Shown: piece by piece, positions 16,056-33,731 of the stretch | How positions within the stretch are numbered: the stretch's first letter is position 1 | How the letters are laid out: each line of letters opens with the position of its first letter | Origin: a virus | Lineage: Duplodnaviria; Caudoviricetes | DNA: 36,157 nt | IMG/VR virus record: IMGVR_UViG_3300028592_000047 | Location: 1 to 36,157 of that record | Strand: one strand, 5' to 3' | The notes under the pieces: model-generated | Told to the model about the DNA's origin: nothing | What the model saw: the letters and a program-made list of their open reading frames with translations, nothing else | The model's database searches: none | Translations under genes and position numbers: made by a program

Positions 16056-16638
16056 CCTTACCGCCATTCTGCCCGCAGGGGCTTTCCAGACCAAGCGGAC
16101 CGACGAGTTCGCGCCGAAGCTGGGCTTCGAGGAACGCTGCGCTATCTTGGCGCTGTTGCGCGCTGGGGTTCGCCGCCCGATTCTAGCCGCAGCCTTTGGC
16201 ATCGACAAGCGCACGATCGGCCATATCGGCAACAACGCTTCGCAGCATTACCGCAACGTGCGGCAGGAATACGAAAAGCTGGGCGCGGTCGACTTCAAGG
16301 AAAAGTACCTGACCGAGGCAATCCTAGCCAAGCTCAAGGCGGCGGCTGACGAGTTCAAGCCCCCAGAGCCGCGCCTCAATCCCAAGATCAACCCCGCGCA
16401 GGCGAGCCCCCGCGCGCGCGGAAAAAGTGGCATCCAGACGGTCAAGCCCGACCAGTGCCGCTTTTCGCACCGCCTCGACATTCAATGGAAAGAGCCACCG
16501 GACACCCCTACGACCGGCTGGCATTTCCGCGATCTGGACAGTGACAGCCCAGATGCGTGGTACCACAACGGCGTCGAAAGCCTGAAAACGAGTCAGGCCT
16601 GCTTCGCCGAGGCTGTCGCAAACCTCACCGACGACTAA
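16048..16638 (+). CDS. Putative helix-turn-helix protein
   Basis: LGFEERCAILALLRAGVRRPILAAAFGIDKRTIGHI fits an HTH. Confidence 0.7.
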   Translation: MTDLTAILPAGAFQTKRTDEFAPKLGFEERCAILALLRAGVRRPILAAAFGIDKRTIGHIGNNASQHYRNVRQEYEKLGAVDFKEKYLTEAILAKLKAAADEFKPPEPRLNPKINPAQASPRARGKSGIQTVKPDQCRFSHRLDIQWKEPPDTPTTGWHFRDLDSDSPDAWYHNGVESLKTSQACFAEAVANLTDD

Positions 16639-16670
16639 GTTTCTACACCCCGCAACAAAGGAGACGGGAA

Positions 16671-17228
16671 ATGACGACCGAAGTAAATCGTGTCTGCGAT
16701 TGTGCGACCTGCAAAGAGCAGGCTATTCTGGCCGCAGAGTTTCTGTGCCAGCTGATGGACAAGGGCCACTGCGCCATTTCGGTGGCTGCGGTGGGTTCCG
16801 CCATGCAGACCATGATTGCCAGCCTCATGTTTGCCGCAAAAGCGGGCAAGGCTGGTGTCGACACCAGCCACCCGTTGGCCGAACTACTGTTCGTGCCCGA
16901 GGTCCACGGCGTGATGAAGGAACTGGACGACGTTATGCTGGCGTTCCTCGAAGAACGGAGCGACGGCGGCACGAGCAAGGCGGCTGGCGACATCGTGCAG
17001 GACATGCTGAACGGTGCAGTTGAGCGCGCCAACGAAAAGCGAGTGGGCGACAAGCGCAAGGCGGACTGGGACAAGAAAACCAGCCGCAAACCAACGGCGG
17101 ACTACGTTGAAGAGCACAAAATCAAAGGAACCGATGACGTCGCTGGTCCGCGCGTCTACGCGTTCACCGGCACGCTTGAGGAACTGATGGAACACCTCAG
17201 CGACCCGCGCAACGCGCCGAAGCACTAG
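16671..17228 (+). CDS. Hypothetical protein with N-terminal CxCxxC
   Basis: ATG 16671 after AAGGAG; 185 aa. Confidence 0.7.
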   Translation: MTTEVNRVCDCATCKEQAILAAEFLCQLMDKGHCAISVAAVGSAMQTMIASLMFAAKAGKAGVDTSHPLAELLFVPEVHGVMKELDDVMLAFLEERSDGGTSKAAGDIVQDMLNGAVERANEKRVGDKRKADWDKKTSRKPTADYVEEHKIKGTDDVAGPRVYAFTGTLEELMEHLSDPRNAPKH

Positions 17229-17276
17229 GCTCAACACGGGCGGCGCAAATGCCGCCCAACAAGGAGGCATGGGCAA

Positions 17277-17753
17277 ATGCTTGCGATAATACACATAGAA
17301 TTCGAAAACAACGACCTGATCAACAATCGGTTGACCAAGGATCAGTATACCCAACTTCGCGACCAAGTAGTCGGCCTCCGCCTTTCGGAGTGGGACGACG
17401 AAACAAACAAACCCAAAAGCTCTTGGTACGGTTGGGGCGAAGACGTTTGTGTCGACCTCACCGACGACGTTAGGCTGCTGGAAAAGCTCGGCATCAAATA
17501 CAGCGTCCAGCGTGTCAAGAACACCTACACTCACCTTGCCCCGGCGCAAGACCCTGGCCAGACGCACGTCACCTACAACTTCGCGCTTCCTAACATCGGG
17601 CTTCTGGTTATCGATGAAGTTACGTGGCTGGACGATGCGTGCACCGAAGAACTGCAGCGGCACCTCAATGAGAAATGGCGCATCATAGCCGTTTGTCCCC
17701 CGAATGGTGCCCGAAGGCCGGACTACATACTAGGACGAACGAAGACCACTTGA
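17277..17753 (+). CDS. Hypothetical protein
   Basis: 158 aa after AAGGAGG; C-terminal DACTEELQRHL..KWRIIAVCPP..RRPDYILGR motif. Confidence 0.8.
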   Translation: MLAIIHIEFENNDLINNRLTKDQYTQLRDQVVGLRLSEWDDETNKPKSSWYGWGEDVCVDLTDDVRLLEKLGIKYSVQRVKNTYTHLAPAQDPGQTHVTYNFALPNIGLLVIDEVTWLDDACTEELQRHLNEKWRIIAVCPPNGARRPDYILGRTKTT

Positions 17754-17778
17754 CACGGCAACATCGCCGTGGTAAAAT
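17750..17778 (+). promoter_or_regulatory. Sigma70-type promoter TTGACA-N17-TAAAAT
   Basis: Consensus match, followed by hairpin ACGGGTAGC / GCTACCCGT (17781-17808). Confidence 0.78.
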
Positions 17779-17854
17779 ACACGGGTAGCTAGGGGATTGG
17801 CTACCCGTTTTGCGTTTTCAATCCACACACATTGTCAAACGAGGAACCACCACA

Positions 17855-18874
17855 ATGACGATCCATCATTCACAGGTAAAGAAAGCCGAGAAGCTGGGCA
17901 TCGAGCTCACCGAGGACGGCGATGCGGTGCGGGCGTTCTGGCCCAAGCGCGCGCTGGCCATCGTCGGCGCATCGGCAAGTGACGTAATGGCGCAGATGCA
18001 GGCAGCCATCGCCGTGTGCGATGGCGACGAGTACCGGATGCGGGGCGAGGGACGCCTCGTAACGGTAACCCGCATCGAGGATGGCGCATTCTTGGTTGGC
18101 TCGCCCATGGCGGCAGTGTCGGCCCACAAGCAGATCAAGCTGGACAAGAACGCGGTCTGGCAGGACACCGACCCGCGCAACACCGAGCTCCCCGATGTCG
18201 ACCTCACTTCTTTCGATGATACCCCCGGCAACACGGGGGGCTATGACGGCCCTTTTGGTGCAAGCGCCACGGACACTATTGCTTCGGGGACAAAGAGTAC
18301 TGTTGAGCGCAGCGAAAAGGGCGTGGCCCTTAACGGCGCTATCGCCTACGCCGAGGGCACCCCGGCTGGCGACTGCCCGTACAACAGCGAGGGCGGCGAT
18401 GACGAATACGAATTGTTCGTAAAGTGGAACGACGACTGGGACGCGGCGGCGGACCTTGCAGCCGAGGAAGAAGGCGAAAAGGGCGGCTCGGTGGTTGCGC
18501 AGAAGTACCGCGCCAAATACGCCGAGCTAGGCCACCCCACCCATTGCGGCGACTGGCTGGCAAGCTTGCTCAACAACCTGTGCCTGACCAAGAAAGACAC
18601 CGATCTGGGCCGATTCGAGACGATCTGCGCCGCCAATGGCGTGGACACCTCCAAGTACAAGCGCGACGGCGTCGGCTGGCAGGGCCGCATCCGAATGACA
18701 GGCCGCAACTTGCTGGCCAAGCAGGTCTATCTGGCAGGCGGCGTGATCAAAACCCCGGTGGAGGGGGCGGAGCCCGAATACCGCGCTCCTGCCGACTGGA
18801 TGCAGATGCAGCGGTTCAAGATGCCGCAGGCTCAGCAGGCCGCGCCCATTCCGGCACCTGCCGCTGCAGCCTGA
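17855..18874 (+). CDS. Multidomain hypothetical protein with Rmf-like CPY motif and GRxRMT-domain paralog B
   Basis: ATG 17855 after GAGG; GAIAYAEG..GDCPY...WNDDW motif; C-terminal domain similar to 14218-14661. Confidence 0.85.
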   Translation: MTIHHSQVKKAEKLGIELTEDGDAVRAFWPKRALAIVGASASDVMAQMQAAIAVCDGDEYRMRGEGRLVTVTRIEDGAFLVGSPMAAVSAHKQIKLDKNAVWQDTDPRNTELPDVDLTSFDDTPGNTGGYDGPFGASATDTIASGTKSTVERSEKGVALNGAIAYAEGTPAGDCPYNSEGGDDEYELFVKWNDDWDAAADLAAEEEGEKGGSVVAQKYRAKYAELGHPTHCGDWLASLLNNLCLTKKDTDLGRFETICAANGVDTSKYKRDGVGWQGRIRMTGRNLLAKQVYLAGGVIKTPVEGAEPEYRAPADWMQMQRFKMPQAQQAAPIPAPAAAA

Positions 18875-20920: not shown

Positions 20921-23470
20921 ATGGCATTCGAATCCATCGCTGGCGGCTTTAAGGTCAGCGCCCAAGACCAGCAGCTGGTCAACGCGCAGCGCGCTATCAC
21001 CAAGGTCATTAACGACCGGTTCATCCAGGTCGGCGCGGTCTTCCTCAAGACCAGCAGCAAGAACCCCCACGAGGATGACTGGTACAAGCGCGGGCATCGC
21101 GACACCGATCTTCAAGCGTGGATTGACAATCCCGATCTGAACTACCACAACGCAGGGTTCAACCTGCAGATGGGCTGGCTCGATATCGACATCGACGCAG
21201 AGGACCCCGAGTACAACGAATGCATCCTCGCGGCGCTTAATCACCTCAAGATTGACACGCGGTTCAAGTTCGGCCGCCTTTCGGTGGGTGTGGCAAGCCA
21301 CGTCATGGTTCAGCTGGGGGAGGACGAGGCCACCAACTTCGACAAGCTCACCCGCTTCGAGCCCAAGGAATTCCGGATCGAAGGCAAGCGCTACCACGTT
21401 CAGCTGCGCGGCTTCTCCACCAATACGAGCGCCGCCAACGTAGCTAAGTCGGCCAAGCAGACCGTGATGCCGGGTTCCATCTACACCCACAAGACCGAAA
21501 GGGACAGGTACGACATCTCTGTCTGGTACGGGCCAGCAGGCGTTGCGACTGAGGTCAAGAACATCACCTCGACGACGCCCCGGCGCGTCAACTTCAACGA
21601 GATCGTCCGCGCCATCTGCTTCGGCACATTCCTGTACTGCCTCAAGGAAGAGTGGGTCGAGGGCAGCCGCCAGATGACGGCGCAGAAGGTGACCGGCTGG
21701 CTCGCGCGCGTCATGAAGGACAGCGCCGCGATGAATAACCACGAGGTGGTGTCGTCCGACGTGTTTTGCCCCGTCGACGACGAGGGCATCGCCGAATCGC
21801 TGCTGTATTTCATCTGCGACTACATGCACGACGACGAAAAGCACATGCGGGTGCGCGCTTTCCATGACGCCGTGGCCAAGCTGGAGCGCAACCCCGACGC
21901 CAAGGTTCCCGGCTGGCCCGCAATGGAGCAGCTTATCGGCGGCGCTAAGACGCTGGCGTTGCGTACTGTGTTCATGCCGGGCTCAGACGTGTCGCAGTTG
22001 ACCAAGATGGCTGAAAGGTACGTGTATGACGAAACTGACAACCAGTACATTGACCGCACTCGCTTCTTCACTACTGGCGGGTTCGTCCATGCCGGTGAAG
22101 AACTCGAACGGAGACATCGTGGCGATGTCGTCCGAATTGGCGGGAAACCTAAGCAGGCCTTTTCGGTGTACGAGTCCAGCGACATGCGAAAGCGAGTCGG
22201 GTTCAGAGACCTTTATCCAGACCTTAATCCGGGAGGCATTTACCGCATCTCAGGACTGGGGGAAGTCCTCTCTGATGATGACGACGGGGACAATACCGCT
22301 CTATCGGTATTTAATACGTGGCGAGGATGGCCTGTGGGTGTTCCGGACAAAGTTGATGAGCGACTACTTTCTGACCTCGTTGGACGTCTCGATACCGTAT
22401 TGGGATATCTCACCCAGGATAAGGTCGAGCAAATAGACTGGATCAAGCGCTGGATGGCGTGGACGTTCCAGCGCCCCGGCGACAAGCAGCAGATCGCTTG
22501 GGTGGTAGTGGGCGAGCAGGGCATCGGCAAATCGTGGATTGGCAACATCTTTATGCGGGCTCTCATGGGCACGCTCTGGGGATCGGCGTCACCGAAAGTG
22601 ATGGAGGGCGACTTCGTCATTGGGCCGTTCCTCAACAAGATGTTCGTGTTCATCGACGAGGCCAAGTTCCACTCCGAGGTGGGCGTCGACGAAATCAAGA
22701 AGCTGATCCGTGGCGTGGACGTTCCCGGAGCGGAGAAGTTCCAGGATGCGCGCAACTATAGACTGTTTGCCCGACTAATGTTTGCGTCCAACCGCATGAA
22801 CATGAATATCGGTCAAGCCAACGTGCGCGACCGTGCTTTGTTCTATACCCGCGCGTATGACCGCGACTACAAGCGTATGACCGAGGCCGATTTTCGCACT
22901 TGGGCGGAGACGCTCAAGCCATGGTTTCAGGAGTACACCGATCTGCTCCAGCAACGAACGGTGCGTGAACACTACATGCACTATTTCCTCAACGTGGTAA
23001 AGACCGACAAGTTCGAGGTCGAGAGCATCAAGCATTCCAGCAGCGCCGACGCGCAGATCGTTATCGGCAACATGTCGTGGTCGCGCCGCATCGCCAAGTA
23101 CATCATCGAAGATGGGCGCATCCACGAGGACCTCGACATCTCGTACCCATTCACGGTGCCCGAGCTCAACCGGCGTGTGGTCGACGTGTGCAGGGAGCTA
23201 GGCATGTCGAATGTGCAGGGCAGCCACATCTTGGCGGAGTTCGAGAGCGCTGGTGTCCTTGAGAAGATCGTAGTCGCCGGTCAGAAGAAGCTGCGCTTCA
23301 CCCACAAGATCGGCTCCCTCACCCAGTTTTTCGGCGTGGCGATCGGTGTCGACCTCGAACCCCGCTACGAGTTCACCGAAAAGGACATGGGGCCCAACGA
23401 CTGCGACGGTTCCACCCGCCCCTCATGGCGTGGGTCCAAGCTGGGCGTAGTGGCTCAGAGTAGGGTGTAG
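20921..23470 (+). CDS. Primase-polymerase (AEP-type) fused to SF3-type helicase
   Basis: N-terminal WLDIDID and SH motifs plus TVMPGSI; C-terminal Walker A GEQGIGKS, Walker B VFIDEA, motif C MFASN. Confidence 0.88.
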   Translation: MAFESIAGGFKVSAQDQQLVNAQRAITKVINDRFIQVGAVFLKTSSKNPHEDDWYKRGHRDTDLQAWIDNPDLNYHNAGFNLQMGWLDIDIDAEDPEYNECILAALNHLKIDTRFKFGRLSVGVASHVMVQLGEDEATNFDKLTRFEPKEFRIEGKRYHVQLRGFSTNTSAANVAKSAKQTVMPGSIYTHKTERDRYDISVWYGPAGVATEVKNITSTTPRRVNFNEIVRAICFGTFLYCLKEEWVEGSRQMTAQKVTGWLARVMKDSAAMNNHEVVSSDVFCPVDDEGIAESLLYFICDYMHDDEKHMRVRAFHDAVAKLERNPDAKVPGWPAMEQLIGGAKTLALRTVFMPGSDVSQLTKMAERYVYDETDNQYIDRTRFFTTGGFVHAGEELERRHRGDVVRIGGKPKQAFSVYESSDMRKRVGFRDLYPDLNPGGIYRISGLGEVLSDDDDGDNTALSVFNTWRGWPVGVPDKVDERLLSDLVGRLDTVLGYLTQDKVEQIDWIKRWMAWTFQRPGDKQQIAWVVVGEQGIGKSWIGNIFMRALMGTLWGSASPKVMEGDFVIGPFLNKMFVFIDEAKFHSEVGVDEIKKLIRGVDVPGAEKFQDARNYRLFARLMFASNRMNMNIGQANVRDRALFYTRAYDRDYKRMTEADFRTWAETLKPWFQEYTDLLQQRTVREHYMHYFLNVVKTDKFEVESIKHSSSADAQIVIGNMSWSRRIAKYIIEDGRIHEDLDISYPFTVPELNRRVVDVCRELGMSNVQGSHILAEFESAGVLEKIVVAGQKKLRFTHKIGSLTQFFGVAIGVDLEPRYEFTEKDMGPNDCDGSTRPSWRGSKLGVVAQSRV

Positions 23471-26491: not shown

Positions 26492-26673
26492 GCGGTGCCA
26501 ATGTCCTCAAAAGCGTGAAGCTAGCCAACGCCAAGTTGCGCAGGCTCCGCGATCAGTTTCGCACATACAGGGGCCTCGAAAACAACTACAGTAAGAAAGC
26601 TTCAAGGAAGCTCCAGGAGATAGCGATGACCCGCCATCTGATGAAAGAGAATGGGATACCAGAAGATGAGTGA
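26479..26673 (+). CDS. Hypothetical basic protein
   Basis: Fills the gap before the polymerase; start uncertain. Confidence 0.5.
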   Translation: MAEVGGANVLKSVKLANAKLRRLRDQFRTYRGLENNYSKKASRKLQEIAMTRHLMKENGIPEDE

Positions 26674-28492
26674 CTATCTCGACGCAATTGACCCCGAACT
26701 AGCGCTGATGATCGTGCGGGAAAGTAAGGTGATCGCCTATGACACCGAAACTTCCGGCCTTGTCCACGGCGTTGCCTTCATCTGCGGGTATGTCATCACC
26801 GATCACTCGCACTCCCTTTACATTCCGGTCCGCCACGAGGGCGGCGGCAACATTCCGTTCGTCGAGGAATTCGAGCAGGAGCTCAACGCGGCGTTTCAAG
26901 AGCGCGGGCGTCTCGGCCTTCGCACGGTCGGTCACAACCTTGGCTTCGATCTGCGCATGTCGGCGTGGCACAACGTCTGGCCCCAAAGCCCCCTCGAAGA
27001 CACGTTGATCAATGAAGGTCTGATCGACGACCGGACCATCGGTTACGGCCTCGACGACTGTTGCCGCAGACACCAAGTCACCGCCAAGAAGGGCGACGAG
27101 CTCTACCGCGCTATCGCTGAGAGGTTCGGCGGAATCCCCGATCGCAAACAGATGGCTAACTTCTGGCGGATGCCGGGGGACCAATTCGAAGTGGTGGACT
27201 ACGCCACGGGTGACGGCGTGTCGACGTTGGAGTTGTGGTCGTCACAGAACGTGCTGCTCGACCAAGAACAGCTGAGGGTTCCGTGGCAGCTGGAGTGCGA
27301 CCTCCTGCCCTACCTCGCCCGCATGCACAGACGCGGAATCCGAATTGACGCCGACTACGCCGAAAGGGTGGAGGACGACCTCAAGGATCAGATCAAGGAA
27401 GCCAGTTCCGTATTTTCGGCGGGTTTCAACGTCCGGTCCCCCAAGGAAGTCGAGGCGCTGTATCGGGCCAACGGCTACGGCGACGACTCCTTCGATCGCA
27501 CGGATACCGGCAAGGTTTCCTTCACCGAAAGCTGGCTCGAAACTAATGAGATCGGCAGCAGCATCCTCGGCGTTCGCCGTCTGGAAAAGGCGCGCGACAG
27601 CTTTATCGCCCCGCTCGCCGTCACCAACAACATCGCTGGGCGGGTTCACGCCACGCTCAATCAGTCCAAATCCGACGAATACGGCGTTGCTGGTTCCCGC
27701 CTCTCCTGCTCGGTCCCCAATCTCCAGGCGTTCCCCAAGCGCAACAAGCAGGTCGGCAAGGTCGTGCGCCGCCTAGTCATTGCTGATGACGGTATGTTGC
27801 TGGAGGAAGGCGATGCGATGCAGCAGGAGCCGCGCTTCTTTGCCCATTACAGTGAAGACGAGGCGCTGCTTCACGGCTACAACACCGACCCGTCCTTCTC
27901 GGTCCACCATCGCGCCAACGACATGATGTTCGACGGGCAGGAGTACGATAAGGCCAAGCGCATGGCCATGGGCATCCTTTCGATGATGTACCCCAGGGCG
28001 CTGGCTGGCCATCTGCGCATCAGCGTCAAGGAAGCCTCGGCGCTGCGGCAAAAGTTCCTCTACGAGGCGTTCCCCGCGATCGGCCAGTTCCAAAAGGACG
28101 TGGTCAGTGTATTCGAGAGCCGGGGTTATGTTCGCTCGATCCTAGGCCGAAAAGCGAGGCTGGAGACGAGCAAGTGGGCGTACAAGGGCGTGTCGCGCGT
28201 GATCCAGAACAGCGGCGGCGACCATATCAAGACGTGCATTCTGCGCGCCTGCCAGTACGAGGACGCCTACCCCGACTTGGTTCAAATCCTACTGTCCATT
28301 CACGACTCCGTTATGTGGCAGCGCGACCCGGCCCACTCCCCCAAGGAGTTGGTGCGCGTAATGGAGAACGTGCCGCACGAGCCGCAGTTCAACCTCCGCC
28401 TGCCCATTCCTTTCGAGGTGGGCTCCGCTCGCAACTGGTCGGACGCGTCGTACGGCCCCAAGATCAAGGATAAGATGGGATGGCAAATCTAG
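26651..28492 (+). CDS. Family A DNA polymerase with 3'-5' exonuclease; candidate Z-selective DpoZ (start may be 26666)
   Basis: ExoI IAYDTETSGL, ExoII GHNLGFDL, ExoIII YATGD; SRLSCSVPNLQ, motif A GDAMQQEPR, motif B KAKRMAMGILS, motif C SIHDS. Confidence 0.93.
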   Translation: MGYQKMSDYLDAIDPELALMIVRESKVIAYDTETSGLVHGVAFICGYVITDHSHSLYIPVRHEGGGNIPFVEEFEQELNAAFQERGRLGLRTVGHNLGFDLRMSAWHNVWPQSPLEDTLINEGLIDDRTIGYGLDDCCRRHQVTAKKGDELYRAIAERFGGIPDRKQMANFWRMPGDQFEVVDYATGDGVSTLELWSSQNVLLDQEQLRVPWQLECDLLPYLARMHRRGIRIDADYAERVEDDLKDQIKEASSVFSAGFNVRSPKEVEALYRANGYGDDSFDRTDTGKVSFTESWLETNEIGSSILGVRRLEKARDSFIAPLAVTNNIAGRVHATLNQSKSDEYGVAGSRLSCSVPNLQAFPKRNKQVGKVVRRLVIADDGMLLEEGDAMQQEPRFFAHYSEDEALLHGYNTDPSFSVHHRANDMMFDGQEYDKAKRMAMGILSMMYPRALAGHLRISVKEASALRQKFLYEAFPAIGQFQKDVVSVFESRGYVRSILGRKARLETSKWAYKGVSRVIQNSGGDHIKTCILRACQYEDAYPDLVQILLSIHDSVMWQRDPAHSPKELVRVMENVPHEPQFNLRLPIPFEVGSARNWSDASYGPKIKDKMGWQI

Positions 28493-28839
28493 GCAACTCG
28501 ATTCGTCCGAAAGGTAAGTCGTTCCACAGCATCATGCGGGCTGTTATGGCGGCGATATCCGAGCCAGACACAAGCGTGGTCCACATCAGCGACTCCCTTC
28601 ACACAGCGCGGCATCACATGCAATACGCGGCCCACATCGTTCAGCCGCTTGGCGAGTTCGCCAAAGTGCGCCTGACAGACATGTGGATTGTGTTCGACAA
28701 CGGGTCGCGAGTCAACTTTGTGTCGGGGCGTGACACCTACTGGGTAAAGGGCAACCGGCACCGCAGATTCTTCATCGACCATTACGCGTTCGAAGAGGGG
28801 TTGACACCGGTTGAGCTCCGTGGTAAAGTGGAGGTGTAG
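28480..28839 (+). CDS. Hypothetical protein
   Basis: 119 aa; IVFDNGSRVNF...FFIDH resembles a degenerate P-loop fragment. Confidence 0.65.
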   Translation: MANLGNSIRPKGKSFHSIMRAVMAAISEPDTSVVHISDSLHTARHHMQYAAHIVQPLGEFAKVRLTDMWIVFDNGSRVNFVSGRDTYWVKGNRHRRFFIDHYAFEEGLTPVELRGKVEV

Positions 28840-29073: not shown

Positions 29074-29453
29074 AGCCGGAAGCGAAAGCTAAGAACGCGA
29101 TTGTCGACGCCTTCCAGGAGGGTGGGCATTATGCGCGCCGCTTCGAGGATCAGTTCTATGTCGGTTTCCCCGATATGATACTGATACCTCGCGGCTATCC
29201 GGCTTTCTTCACCGAGGCTAAGATTGTCGACGGGCTGCAATTCAAGCCCCGACTTCGGCAATGGGTTGAGCTTGACCGGCTGTCCCTTTCGCCGAAGCAC
29301 GTGATTCCCACAATGTTGGGGGTAAAGGCGGGTGTCCACTACCTGCACAAGTTCGCCAAAATCGTGCACATTGTCGACTGCGTAAAGCAGCGGGATGGCG
29401 AACACATAGTGGATTTGTTCAAGCGATACTACCACGAAAGGATGGAATTATGA
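29070..29453 (+). CDS. VRR-NUC / PD-(D/E)xK nuclease (resolvase-like)
   Basis: KPE...GFPDMILI...FFTEAK...Q motifs. Confidence 0.8.
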   Translation: MKPEAKAKNAIVDAFQEGGHYARRFEDQFYVGFPDMILIPRGYPAFFTEAKIVDGLQFKPRLRQWVELDRLSLSPKHVIPTMLGVKAGVHYLHKFAKIVHIVDCVKQRDGEHIVDLFKRYYHERMEL

Positions 29454-29848
29454 GTGACAACAAACGCGTTGCCGGTGACCTCATCACCCAAGCGGCCAAG
29501 ACAGTCCTGAAAGACCGCCCCGGCGTCCACGGGTCGGTTGAAAACAGCTTCCAGATGATCGCCGACCTCTGGAACGTGCGTATCGCCCACAAGCGCGCCA
29601 TTCACGGCAGCGATGCTCTGCTCAACCCGGCTGACGTGGCGCAGTTCATGGCCGACCTCAAGTCGTGCCGCACCTCTTACGGCGACCCGATGAACGCTGA
29701 CAACTTCGTCGACGGCATCGGCTACCTCGCCTTGGCGGGCATGCTCACCTTGCCCGACCCAGACGCTTCCAAATCGGTGGGGGACGAGCTCGAAAAAGAG
29801 TTCCCGCCAATAAGCGGCAAGACCGTTCACACCAACATCAACGCGTAA
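29450..29848 (+). CDS. DUF6378-like protein
   Basis: DR..VHG..ENSFQMIADLW, DVAQFMADLKSCR, DNFVDGIGYLAL. Confidence 0.75.
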   Translation: MSDNKRVAGDLITQAAKTVLKDRPGVHGSVENSFQMIADLWNVRIAHKRAIHGSDALLNPADVAQFMADLKSCRTSYGDPMNADNFVDGIGYLALAGMLTLPDPDASKSVGDELEKEFPPISGKTVHTNINA

Positions 29849-29859
29849 GGACACGACAA

Positions 29860-30924
29860 ATGCACAGCGTCCCCTTGTTCGAAGCGACCGGAGCTCACGT
29901 TCTGGTCGATGGTCAATACGGCTCCACGGGCAAGGGGGTGCTGGCCGCTTGGCTGGCACTCAGGGCCATGGAGCGGGGTATCGTTTTCGACACTGTCGTC
30001 AGCAATGCCGGTCCGAACTCTGGTCACACGTTTTACCACGGCAGCGAAAAGCACGTCCTGAAACAGCTGCCCACGTTCGCCGTAGCGTCCTACCTTCTCC
30101 ACAACGAGGACTTCGCTCCGGACGTCGTCCTTTCGGCGGGCGCGATCATCGACCCTATTCAGCTGGGCGTCGAGGCCGAAAAGTACCCCGGCATCACGAT
30201 CCATGTTCACCCCAATGCGGCGGTCATCACCGCCGAGGACCGGGCGGCGGAGCATTCCGGCACCATAGCCGCCGTGGCTGGTACCCGAAGTGGCACTGGC
30301 GCGGCGCTAGCCCGGAAGGTGCAGCGGGACCCCAAGGCGGTGGTAGCGGGTGCGAGGCTGCCGGTCCAGATGACCTCGCAGCCCAACATCAAGGTCGCCG
30401 CCGTTGAGCACGACGCCTACAACGATCGGGTGTTCGTCGAGGTGAGCCAGGGTTTTTCGTTGGGCATTAACCAGCCGTTCTATCCGAAGGTCACGAGCAG
30501 GGAGTGCACCGTTGCACAAGCCATCGCTGATGCTGGTATTCCGCCGAGGCACGTCACCAAGACTTACCTATCGCTTCGTACTTTTCCGATACGCGTCGGC
30601 AACGTGGATGGGCACGACAGCGGGGACTGGTACCCCGATCAGGTTGAAACTGACTGGGTCGCGCTCGGTGTCGAACCAGAACTCACCACCGTCACCCAGA
30701 GGGTGAGGCGTGTCGCAACATGGTCCGAGGAACAATTCCTCGATGCCTGCCGTGCCAATGACCCGGACATTGTGTTCCTGAACTTCCTCAACTATATTGA
30801 TGACGTGGAAGTTCGCATGCGGTTCATCGACGGCGTTGCCGATCTTCGGGACAACCTGCCCCGCTGGTACGATATCTACGGCAGCACCGGCCCCAAGTCG
30901 GAGGACGTAAGCTACTATGGTTAA
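29860..30924 (+). CDS. purZ: N6-succino-2-amino-dAMP synthase (adenylosuccinate synthetase paralog)
   Basis: DGQYGSTGKG (Ser in place of the PurA catalytic Asp of GDEGKG), PNSGHT, SQGFSLG, YPKVTSRE, RTFPIRVG, ELTTVTQRVRRV, FLNFLNY. Confidence 0.9.
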   Translation: MHSVPLFEATGAHVLVDGQYGSTGKGVLAAWLALRAMERGIVFDTVVSNAGPNSGHTFYHGSEKHVLKQLPTFAVASYLLHNEDFAPDVVLSAGAIIDPIQLGVEAEKYPGITIHVHPNAAVITAEDRAAEHSGTIAAVAGTRSGTGAALARKVQRDPKAVVAGARLPVQMTSQPNIKVAAVEHDAYNDRVFVEVSQGFSLGINQPFYPKVTSRECTVAQAIADAGIPPRHVTKTYLSLRTFPIRVGNVDGHDSGDWYPDQVETDWVALGVEPELTTVTQRVRRVATWSEEQFLDACRANDPDIVFLNFLNYIDDVEVRMRFIDGVADLRDNLPRWYDIYGSTGPKSEDVSYYG

Positions 30925-31381
30925 CCACACTTACGACGATGACTACGAGGAAGAAATAGTGCGCAACGAAAAGGAACACTCTACGCACCCGGTCCGCCCC
31001 TTGGTGCCCCGCCTATCCAGAGAAGACATGGAACAAATCGCTAGCAGGGTAGAGAAGGCGGCGGGCGTAGATTTCCACGTGAATCTTCAATCTCCGCCCA
31101 ATCAGCCCCTGACGATCGAAATCCCAAGCGAGGTCCTCCAGTATCGCGAAGATATCCGCCGCTTCGTCGACGCGATGCTCTACAAATTGAAGGTCCACCA
31201 CCGAAAAGGCAGGTGGGAGGGTAAGACCATCGACGAATATCTGCCGCTATTGGAGGGGGAGGTGGCCGAGCTACGGGAAGCCTGTGGCGGCGGCAACTTG
31301 ATAGAGATACTCATGGAGGCCGCTGACACCGCCAACATGGCTATGATCATATCAGCAATAGCGGTGGAGCGAGGGAAATGA
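30917..31381 (+). CDS. mazZ: MazG-like all-alpha (d)NTP pyrophosphohydrolase, probable dGMP supplier
   Basis: LEGEVAELREA...ILMEAADTANMA (ExxE...ExxD); overlaps the purZ stop. Confidence 0.72.
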   Translation: MVNHTYDDDYEEEIVRNEKEHSTHPVRPLVPRLSREDMEQIASRVEKAAGVDFHVNLQSPPNQPLTIEIPSEVLQYREDIRRFVDAMLYKLKVHHRKGRWEGKTIDEYLPLLEGEVAELREACGGGNLIEILMEAADTANMAMIISAIAVERGK

Positions 31382-31587: not shown

Positions 31588-31790
31588 CCAGTCGCCCTAC
31601 ACACGACGCGGTGCAGATCGTCAAGGCCGTCCTTTGGGAAGAAGCCAAAGGCAAGCTCCGAGCCCTCGTTGCCGCCGAGGGGTCAAGATACAGCACTCCT
31701 GAAAAGGGCGAGCCCTTCAAGCACGAGGTAATCTCGGAGGAAATCGAGGCGTTCATCAAGGCTTTTGAGGGCGAGGAGTACAATCTGTGA
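31584..31790 (+). CDS. Hypothetical protein
   Basis: 68 aa overlapping both neighbours by 4 nt. Confidence 0.7.
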
Positions 31791-32341
31791 CCAGTCGCAA
31801 CACAATTTTCAACGAGTTGGATCACCGCCTTTCGGTCGTTAAGCGTTGGGGCATCCTCCACACAATCCAGACGCAATCGGTGGCGGAGCATTGCTTCAAC
31901 GTTCAGCGCATCGCCATGCGGATTGCGCGAGAATGGTTCGGGATACAGAACCCCTCCGTTATGCTCCAGATTGCCGAAAGGGCGCACCACCACGACGATC
32001 TGGAATCGGTGATGGGCGACCCGCCCACGATGATCAAGCCGTACCTCGACGAGGAAGGCATGGCGAGGGATCACGCCGATCTTGTGCCGATACGCACGGT
32101 CAATAACGAAGTGAAGCGAATCGTCAAGCTGGCCGACATGCTTGAGGCGTTCCACTTCATCTGCATCGAGCGGTTGCTCGGCAACAGGTTTGTCGAGAAC
32201 CACTACAAGAGCTACTGGAACGAAATCGGTGACTACGTGATCACGGCGTTCCCGGATTGTAACATATGGGGCGACGTGTCAGGTGTCATGGAGAACATGG
32301 CGAACGACATCTCCGAACGCCACAGCAAGCGGGGCCGCTGA
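31787..32341 (+). CDS. datZ: HD-domain phosphohydrolase, probable dATP triphosphohydrolase
   Basis: VKRWGIL...[10 protein letters not shown]...[17 protein letters not shown]...[10 protein letters not shown]; co-located with purZ. Confidence 0.85.
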
Positions 32342-32342
32342 C

Positions 32343-33731
32343 ATGCAGCTTTTCGATGTGCAGAAGGAAGGCTTGCGGCGCAGCGGCGGCGCTCGTGGCT
32401 TCGGGTATTTCATGGAGCAGGGCCTCGGTAAGACGTTGACCGCCGAGGCCGACTACCTGGAACGCGTGGCAGAAGGTAACGCCGACCGTTCCATCGTGGT
32501 GTGCCCCAATTCGTTCAAGGGCGGGTGGGTGTCGGACGCCGAAAAGCACGGGCTGGAAATCGACCAGATGGTTTACGACAGCGGCAGCAACGCCGCGTCG
32601 TATTGGGCGAACCGTCCGTCCAATCGCCCCAAGCAACTGATCATCAACTACGAGGCCATCCGCTCCGAAGCGACGATGAACTTCCTTAAGGGGTTCATGC
32701 TCAACCGCCGCGTTTTCGGCATATTTGACGAGAGCATCAAGCTCAAGACATTCAACAGCAGCCAGACCAAGGCCGCCATCGAAATCAGCAAGGATTTTTC
32801 CTACTCCCGCATCCTTTCGGGGAAGCCGGTTTCGCAGGGTCCGCATGACTTGTGGGCGCAGATGCGCGTCATCGGTCAGCTGAATGGTCGCGAGTACTAT
32901 CCGTTCAAGACTATGTTCTGCAAGATGGGCGGCTTCAAGATGAAGCAGGTGATGGGGGTCCAGAACGAGGATTTTCTCCGCCCGATGATCGAACCGCATG
33001 TGTTCCGGGCCACTAAGCTGGACTGGACCGACCTACCGCCCAAGCTGTACACCAGCCGGGAATACAAGATGTCGGGTGACATGCTCACTATGTACAAGCA
33101 GATGCATGAGGAATTCGTTGTTTGGCTCAACGAAGATGAGAATGTATCGGTAGACGCCGCCATCACGAAGTACATCAAGCTGGCGCAGATTCAGTGCGGC
33201 TGGATTTACGACAACGAAGGCAAAGTCCGCCAGCTGGTCGACGACGAAAAGAACCCGCGCCTAAACCTGCTGTCTGACACGATTGAAGAAGAGATCGTGG
33301 GCAAGACAATCGTCGTGTATCACCACAAGCCGGTGTACGACCAATTGATGCGGCGCTTCAAGCATCTGAACCCGGCGTGGATCAAAGGGAAGATGAAGTC
33401 GGAAGAGATTGAGGCCCAAAAGCGCCGCTTCAATGAGGACGACGACTGCCGCATCATTTTCTTGCAGGATGACGCCTCGAAGTACGGCCACACGCTTTTG
33501 GGCAACCAGTCCAAGACGGAGACGGCTTGCTTCAACACGTTGTTTTATGAGAACAGTTACTCGCTCGACACCCGGAGCCAGATCGAGGACCGAAACCACC
33601 GGCATGGGCAGACGATGGATTCGGTCCTCTACACCGATCTAATCGGAAGTCCGCTAGATCGGGATTGTGTTGCGGCTCTGGTGCGCAAGGAAAGTGTTTT
33701 CCAAGCTATTTTCGGCCACCTTAGGCGCTAA
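32343..33731 (+). CDS. SNF2-family helicase
   Basis: MEQGLGKT, IVVCP, INYE, IFDES, LSGKP, SQIEDRNHRHGQ. Confidence 0.9.
   Translation: MQLFDVQKEGLRRSGGARGFGYFMEQGLGKTLTAEADYLERVAEGNADRSIVVCPNSFKGGWVSDAEKHGLEIDQMVYDSGSNAASYWANRPSNRPKQLIINYEAIRSEATMNFLKGFMLNRRVFGIFDESIKLKTFNSSQTKAAIEISKDFSYSRILSGKPVSQGPHDLWAQMRVIGQLNGREYYPFKTMFCKMGGFKMKQVMGVQNEDFLRPMIEPHVFRATKLDWTDLPPKLYTSREYKMSGDMLTMYKQMHEEFVVWLNEDENVSVDAAITKYIKLAQIQCGWIYDNEGKVRQLVDDEKNPRLNLLSDTIEEEIVGKTIVVYHHKPVYDQLMRRFKHLNPAWIKGKMKSEEIEAQKRRFNEDDDCRIIFLQDDASKYGHTLLGNQSKTETACFNTLFYENSYSLDTRSQIEDRNHRHGQTMDSVLYTDLIGSPLDRDCVAALVRKESVFQAIFGHLRR

Follow-up and report, generated by a model that had tools for sequence, protein, structure and literature searches.

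A purZ-linked lineage of phage family A DNA polymerases with an altered O-helix and a putative DpoZ function

The window, as we call the whole 36,157-nucleotide stretch of viral DNA that was analysed, encodes a family A DNA polymerase (PolA) that, judged from its sequence, belongs to a wide lineage tightly linked to purZ and lying outside both named DpoZ families. This lineage appears to be a real and well-defined variant of the DpoZ kind, with a putative DpoZ function. On balance, we expect the window PolA to prefer dZTP over dATP because Ser766 and Arg759 (E. coli Pol I numbers) would restrict efficient closing of the fingers to pairs held by three hydrogen bonds, an expectation drawn from the comparisons below and from analogy with laboratory enzymes.

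The window represents most of the genome of a podophage with an SU10-type capsid and portal. A record carrying the same polymerase (L003) is 44,045 nt long and 100% complete according to CheckV. On the + strand, the replication module runs in the order primase-helicase, PolA, small ORFs, DUF6378, purZ, mazZ-like ORF, datZ and SNF2 helicase (Table 1). It thus contains the purZ-mazZ-datZ cluster of the phiVC8-like gene set, whose products put 2-aminoadenine (Z) in the place of adenine, and by this gene content the window phage is a putative Z-genome phage. Its PurZ resembles the phiVC8-type structures most closely among those compared, and it has a serine at the position of phiVC8 S14, a residue kept in 71/71 aligned family PurZ proteins, and phiVC8-like residues at 294-298; it scores 221.9 bits with NF038379, below the cut-off of 300. 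The mazZ-like ORF, searched against Pfam and NCBIfam, gave zero matches. The DUF6378 gene (29450-29848, +) stands just 5' of purZ throughout the core clade, but it is retained in the purZ-less relative L251 and is therefore not Z-specific. The 119-aa ORF located directly after polA (28480-28839, +) shows a weak match to Terminase_6N (E 9e-4, below the cut-off) and has no counterpart at the same place in the annotation of phage vB_OspP_OH.

Table 1. Features of the polymerase and of the replication module in the window
Feature	Positions	Strand	Evidence or remark
Primase-helicase, at the position of the OspP_OH primase-polymerase p22	20921..23470	+	phrog_1156, PF19263, synteny
Family A DNA polymerase, 3'-5' exonuclease and polymerase, 608 aa	26666..28492	+	PF00476 2.6e-40; phrog_17
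Exonuclease motifs I-III (D26, E28, D95, Y179, D183)	26741..27214	+	Catalytic residues invariant in 120/120 among the matches listed
E288, thumb, aligned with E611; third purZ-tracking column	27527..27529	+	Column scan
R345 (= R668)	27698..27700	+	Conserved in 145/145 family loci among the matches listed
Motif A GDAMQQEPR (D383 = D705, E388 = E710); DAMQQE is 383-388	27809..27835	+	Flanking changes are lineage traits
Motif B / O-helix YDKAKRMAMGILSMM, with Y427, R432 (27959-27961) and S439 (27980-27982)	27944..27988	+	Alignments
Motif 6 YKGVSRVIQNSGGDH, with S510, Q514 and N515	28181..28225	+	Alignments
Motif C HDS, residues 546-548	28301..28309	+	Shared with phiVC8 DpoZ and, among the matches listed, with 5/10 purZ-less relatives
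purZ	29860..30924	+	phrog_1211 2e-55; best PDB match 6FKO group 4e-48
mazZ-2-like nucleotide pyrophosphohydrolase (likely)	30917..31381	+	Aligns with OspP_OH p33, phiVC8 p26 and ZP6 MazG; acidic motifs kept
datZ-like dATP triphosphohydrolase	31787..32341	+	PF12917 5.5e-13; phrog_7076 2.3e-19
SNF2-type helicase, last of the replication module	32283..33731	+	PF00176, phrog_62

The window PolA reads as an intact proofreading family A polymerase. It scores 139 bits with PF00476, whose cut-off is 34.3, and the polymerase residues D383, E388 and D547, like those of the exonuclease, are invariant in the 120 close sequences compared among the matches listed (the window and 119 of the best 120 of 597 hits, the partial P0078 being left out). 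The preliminary description was right in this respect: the catalytic aspartates and all three exonuclease motifs are in place and the gene shows no decay. The structure prediction that it proposed gave an AlphaFold model with a pLDDT of 93.2, in which helix O is unbroken at 427-438. The best PDB match, by sequence and by fold, is 7PBK, with Klenow a close second (TM of about 0.8 to the model). Sequencing error was discarded as the source of the substitutions, as the protein is matched at 100% in L002, L003 and L351, and Tyr occupies position 754 in 51/120 aligned sequences among the matches listed.

Residues were counted from the ATG at 26666 and placed in register by two alignments, one to Klenow (phmmer) and one to Salmonella Pol I; in the latter, D705, R754, K758, Y766, N845, Q849 and D882 bear their E. 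coli numbers. In motif B, Y427 corresponds to R754, K431 to K758, R432 to A759, A434 to N761, M435 to F762, S439 to Y766 and M440 to G767; in motif 6, Y506 corresponds to R841, S510 to N845, Q514 to Q849 and N515 to G850. The substitutions originally picked out by eye (R754Y, N761A, F762M, Y766S and G767M, and further N845S, G850N, HDE to HDS and DYSQIE to DAMQQE) are all real and in register. That first list missed A759R, however, and the statement that K758 alone was kept among the key residues of motif B, though correct for K758, overlooked the invariant G436 (= G763).

Among the matches listed, position 766 is Thr in 68, Ser in 51 and Ala in 1 of the 120 sequences, and never Tyr, while position 754 is Arg in 69 and Tyr in 51. 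Tyr754 is the mark of a single subclade and varies together with nine further columns, which led us to discard R754Y as a marker of Z; some unrelated PolAs, too, have Tyr at this position. The idea that R754 is merely masked by a phiVC8-like O-helix insertion was dropped as well, since K758 lies at the canonical distance and Arg stands exactly there in 69/120 sequences among the matches listed. Few of the contigs with Tyr754 come with genomic context. A metagenome scan gave nine loci, five of them with Tyr754: L351 is the window's own contig, a fragment of purZ is present in L354, and the length of L352, L353 and L357 does not allow purZ to be judged. A lysine, K429 in the window (27950-27952, +), is found at the S756 position in 52/120 sequences, compared with 51 carrying Tyr754 (both among the matches listed), and might stand in for Arg754, the triphosphate-binding residue that was lost.

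A profile search of 50% clusters brought up further relatives around this group (P0121 to about P0199). In FastTree and in a quick IQ-TREE tree built on 57 chosen rows, the window PolA and these relatives form a clade apart from the phiVC8-like DpoZ and from the phiJL001/HTVC023P-like enzymes. The window family and the phiVC8 clade are separate supported clades (SH-aLRT 99 each), and the window is not nested in the latter. The AU test nevertheless does not reject uniting the window family and the phiVC8 group in one clade (p-AU 0.505), and the PurZ proteins of the family form a group beside phiVC8-type PurZ, as its sister. The suggestion that this polymerase followed a route different from that of the described DpoZ enzymes is a candidate reading, alongside a shared origin as a sister lineage within a broad 'DpoZ-2'. 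In a set of 50,697 phage records, the window PolA has a single close relative from a cultured phage, that of Ochrobactrum phage vB_OspP_OH (61.6% identity), the next falling below 30%.

The linkage to purZ was examined in a first set of 81 loci and then in four more scans, at least 350 loci in all; PolA was obtained from at least 349 of the 350, and at least 265 are non-redundant. purZ is present in 75 of the first 81, and the other six end 1,137-2,767 nt past polA. When at least 3.5 kb could be read downstream, purZ was found near polA in 94/109 family loci versus 0/66 outgroup loci among the matches listed. Whole records were also searched, 17 test records together with four positive controls, and purZ was found in 4/4 controls and 2/17 test records; of the 15 negative records, ten that are at least 94% complete were called purZ-less and five incomplete ones were left undecided. 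Of the non-redundant loci, at least 145 belong to the family and, among the matches listed, 125 of these are purZ+, 10 purZ-less and 10 undecided.

Several members of the family show peculiarities of their own. Twelve PolAs (P0125, P0126, P0129, P0146, P0159, P0165, P0166, P0174, P0176, P0179, P0186 and P0189) are 857-987 aa long and match the profile in two stretches, with a break near profile position 350-382; they likely carry insertions such as inteins around motif A. Proteins with a PEP-CTERM tail are inserted between polA and purZ at L044:12681-13331 and L040:12897-13622. In L256, about 650 nt past polA, the purZ and mazZ profiles match one stop-to-stop frame, a possible PurZ-MazZ fusion. 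Finally, a sister purZ+ sub-lineage (L117, L221, L212 and relatives) reads Gln instead of F762 and Thr instead of Y766, Gln being found at 762 in 33/125 purZ+ loci among the matches listed.

The ten purZ-less genomes fall into three lineages nested among purZ+ ones (L251; L105/L106/L113/L115/L266; L131/L286/L288/L292), and joining these lineages is rejected (p-AU 1.5e-6, 0.004 and 4.3e-5) on trees from which column 288 and motifs B and 6 had been left out. L251, whose PolA is 57.5% identical to that of the window, is a complete 44-kb genome with terminal repeats and constitutes a natural non-Z control: its region L251:9926-17188 keeps the same gene order, with the purZ-mazZ-datZ block cleanly absent and the DUF6378 gene abutting SNF2, and its PolA reads T759, N766 and N845. 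Among the matches listed, the purZ-less genomes depart from Pol I at F762 in 10/10 cases, at E883 in 10/10, at N761 in 7/10, at G767 in 5/10 and at N845 in 5/10, which means that most of the substitution list reflects lineage. The window's exact residue recurs in them for N845S (5/10), HDS (5/10), G767M (2/10) and G850N (1/10), again among the matches listed. As they do not track purZ in these relatives, N845S, G850N, HDS, G767M and the motif A changes were rejected as Z markers. The occurrence of the same substitutions in homologs lacking purZ, which the preliminary description had named as evidence against its own reading, was therefore found for most positions.

Not all columns behave in this way. 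A scan covered 117 columns with a conservation of 80% or more among 84 purZ+ representatives. Of these columns, 96 differ in no purZ-less lineage, 12 in a single lineage, 6 in two lineages and 3 in every one of the three. These last three are R432 (= A759), S/T439 (= Y766) and E288. From the per-lineage rates, about 0.09 such columns would be expected under independence, and 10/3000 random purZ+ triples reach three or more, although this null is rough, since the purZ+ rows themselves define the consensus; moreover, the purZ-loss contrasts that are independent number only three, one of them a single genome. Among the matches listed, Arg759 is found in 122/125 purZ+ loci (it is missing in three) versus 0/10 purZ-less genomes, Ser/Thr766 in 113/125 versus 0/10 (Asn in 6, Tyr in 4), and E288 in 114/125, the ten purZ-less genomes all having S or K. 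The exceptions at 766 among these purZ+ loci include nine of the 125 listed that keep Tyr, all basal on the tree, and three that have Asn like purZ-less ones. Position 762 is Met or Gln in 105/125 purZ+ loci, and Leu in 20 purZ+ loci and in 10/10 purZ-less genomes among the matches listed. In the outgroup, Tyr766 is kept in 112/113 loci and Arg759 occurs in 2/113 (same scope). Arg759 looks like the older mark and Ser/Thr766 like the later one. The proposal that the substitutions reflect substrate specialisation thus survives for the Y766S column, which tracks purZ; most of the other positions are a matter of lineage, R754Y of a subclade, and two residues of the minor groove, R668 and Q849, are unchanged.

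How could these two O-helix positions favour Z? In Klenow Y766A, the A-dTTP and T-dATP complexes shift to a half-closed state (for A-dTTP, K2 is 1.0 versus 6.1 and Kd1 80 versus 5.1 uM), while the mutant closes on G-dCTP like the wild type (K2 8.9; PMC3715850). C-dGTP, a closer analogue of T-dZTP, finds no mention in the text of that report, where template G was used instead. At the other position, Taq T664R and the equivalent Ala-to-Arg change of E. coli (A759R) are the single O-helix mutants of lowest fidelity, and it was proposed that they stabilise the closed state (PMC2879524). By analogy, loss of the Tyr766 ring would leave a pocket that stops supporting weak, A:T-type pairs; Arg759, by stabilising the closed state, would make closing on Z:T and G:C possible again, while T-dATP would get no further than the half-closed state, from which it would be released or proofread. 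The R754Y change would be a later event of one subclade, likely compensated locally.

The enzyme would thus select by pair strength and not by reading the 2-amino group, an interpretation suggested by the fact that R668 and Q849, which we take to be the principal minor-groove readers, are unchanged (among the matches listed, R668 is kept in 145/145 and Q849 in 141/145 family loci). Such a mechanism fits the pair-stability idea put forward in PMC8599892, but through different residues. Against it, both the 759 and the 766 changes lower fidelity in laboratory enzymes, and according to the argument of PMC8599892 the selectivity of phiVC8 DpoZ is not accounted for by single changes in the active site. 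A bolder version, which we hold to be doubtful, would see here a third, separately evolved DpoZ class with a two-residue O-helix switch (Arg759 and loss of Tyr766), strong enough that many members dropped datZ, and undone three times on return to adenine.

Alternatively, the window PolA might be adapted to Z and not selective for it: the changes would help it in copying Z templates and in displacing a Z-DNA strand, which is more stable, and the dATP pool would be emptied by DatZ, MazZ and PurZ, as in S-2L, where datZ with a non-selective polymerase suffices (PMC10201439). Such an enzyme would show the same tracking with purZ. Moreover, the Klenow Y766A data concern the template base (PMC3715850), POLN is helped in strand displacement and bypass by a basic residue at 759 (PMC2879524, PMC4591814), and the window does have datZ. 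The distribution of datZ in the family speaks in the other direction. It was found in 18/39 core purZ+ loci read far enough among the matches listed, and a whole-record search with PF12917 detected it in 0/5 test records versus 5/5 controls. phrog_7076 matched 5/29 records, and by this profile datZ is absent from 12 purZ+ records that are at least 96% complete. These near-complete genomes (L024, L031, L040, L044, L059, L063, L071, L080, L008, L127, L244 and L123) carry purZ and a mazZ-like gene; a dUTPase was found in one of the 12 (L123), and PF00692, considered as a datZ substitute, in 1/13 records; PF18909, searched with no positive control, matched 0/13. A Pfam scan of 63 ORFs, 54 of them from four datZ-less loci, revealed none of the HD and dUTPase families, the only match being a weak one to PRA-PH on the ORF in the mazZ slot. 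The absence of datZ favours polymerase selectivity without proving it: PurZ itself can use dATP (PMC8342488), so that selectivity is not forced, and related pyrophosphohydrolases hydrolyse dATP (bioRxiv 10.1101/2025.10.22.683976). In addition, selectivity is a property of both PolA groups of Z phages that have been characterised (PMC10201439). We consider an enzyme that is Z-adapted and non-selective unlikely, though the strongest of the alternatives.

An explanation by lineage drift alone, with a pocket that tolerates all the substitutions and a coincidental match with purZ loss, is improbable. Most of the listed positions do behave so, the contrasts are only three, and Tyr754 is shared with unrelated PolAs; yet a single helix, one that shapes the nascent pair, holds two of the three tracking columns, three such columns far exceed expectation, and Tyr766 is almost always kept in the outgroup. 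More improbable still is a pocket widened for a further-modified base beyond Z, as had been suggested at the outset. In its favour, helix O has lost both of its aromatic residues and the genome has many small ORFs without family assignment. On the other hand, no modifying-enzyme family was found among 49 window ORFs (Pfam, PHROGs) or among 31 further ORFs including the part of L003 missing from the window (PHROGs), the substrate residues of PurZ are standard and the nucleotide gene set matches that of phiVC8. A preference for dZTP that depends on pair strength remains the reading we favour.

A search of openly available papers yielded no description of the window PolA lineage and no link between vB_OspP_OH and PurZ; nor is this phage named in the supplement text of PMC12884076 that was searched. 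The structure of phiVC8 DpoZ did not yield a single determinant of the choice between Z and A (PMC8599892). The present lineage offers natural contrasts, namely close relatives with or without purZ that differ at three conserved columns, and its cultured member, vB_OspP_OH, makes both the DNA and the polymerase accessible to testing. If the two-residue switch is real, Z-selective synthesis could be addressed at the level of single residues and Z phages could be recognised in metagenomes by a sequence marker, pairs of Z-on and Z-off enzymes (window or OspP_OH versus L251) would identify the Z-versus-A residues, and the two-family picture of DpoZ would miss a large environmental lineage.

Two DpoZ groups have been named among the PolAs of Z phages (PMC10201439, PMC12884076), and one PolA group was reported for all PurZ-type phages in NCBI (PMC12884076). 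The phiVC8-like DpoZ (PolA cluster 18 of PMC10201439, 'DpoZ-2' of PMC12884076; NF038380; PDB 7PBK) shares with the window PolA the exonuclease and polymerase layout, the purZ-mazZ-datZ context and HDS, a motif found in T5 as well (PMC8599892). The two enzymes are, however, only 29% identical, and NF038380 gives 273.2 for the window against a cut-off of 500, the phiVC8 control scoring 909 and the non-Z HTVC023P 324. Of the structural features defined for phiVC8 DpoZ in PMC8599892 (three insertions, in the palm, helix O and fingertip; extended helices E1/E2; the signature L455, F459 and G548), the window has insertion 1 without insertions 2 and 3, and the E1/E2 segment (model helices 144-154 and 160-168, with R160/M163 aligned with R161/M165). 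At the signature positions it has M435, S439 and S510 instead, and it has Arg at 759, where five phiVC8-type PolAs have Gln.

The Wayne-like DpoZ (cluster 19; NF038381) is also a purZ-linked PolA, with Arg759 in the two examined (Vulture and Goodman) and HDS in Vulture. It differs in lying far from the window on the tree, in its PurZ0 and dUTPase-like genes and in having Phe at both 762 and 766. With NF038381 (cut-off 350), the window PolA gives no match at 1e-5 and the Vulture control 1127, and no dUTPase was found in L003. Two pattern searches did not find motif B in Hiyaa, and PolA is absent from the stretch of Ghobes examined. The phiJL001-like and HTVC023P-like PolAs (cluster 11) belong to the same broad group as the window enzyme, with insertion 1, Y/H at 841 and often Leu at 762, but they keep Tyr766 and HDE, and purZ is not found nearby in any of the 66 outgroup loci among the matches listed. 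Klenow Y766A/S, Bacillus Y714S, Taq T664R, E. coli A759R and POLN K679 are changed at the same two O-helix positions; these, however, are laboratory mutators or, in the last case, a lesion-bypass enzyme, acting on ordinary DNA, and none of the studies consulted pairs both changes or uses dZTP. The PolA of vB_OspP_OH (PhiOH_p28, Wolominvirus, MT028492) shares the gene order, the purZ/mazG/5'-nucleotidase genes and R759, A761, M762 and S766, and differs in keeping Arg754. These three genes were read as nucleotide salvage, not as Z synthesis (PMC7139368). In L001 (MT028492), positions 16531-18696 hold purZ, mazZ-like and datZ-like genes, and vB_OspP_OH is likely to be an unrecognised cultured Z phage.
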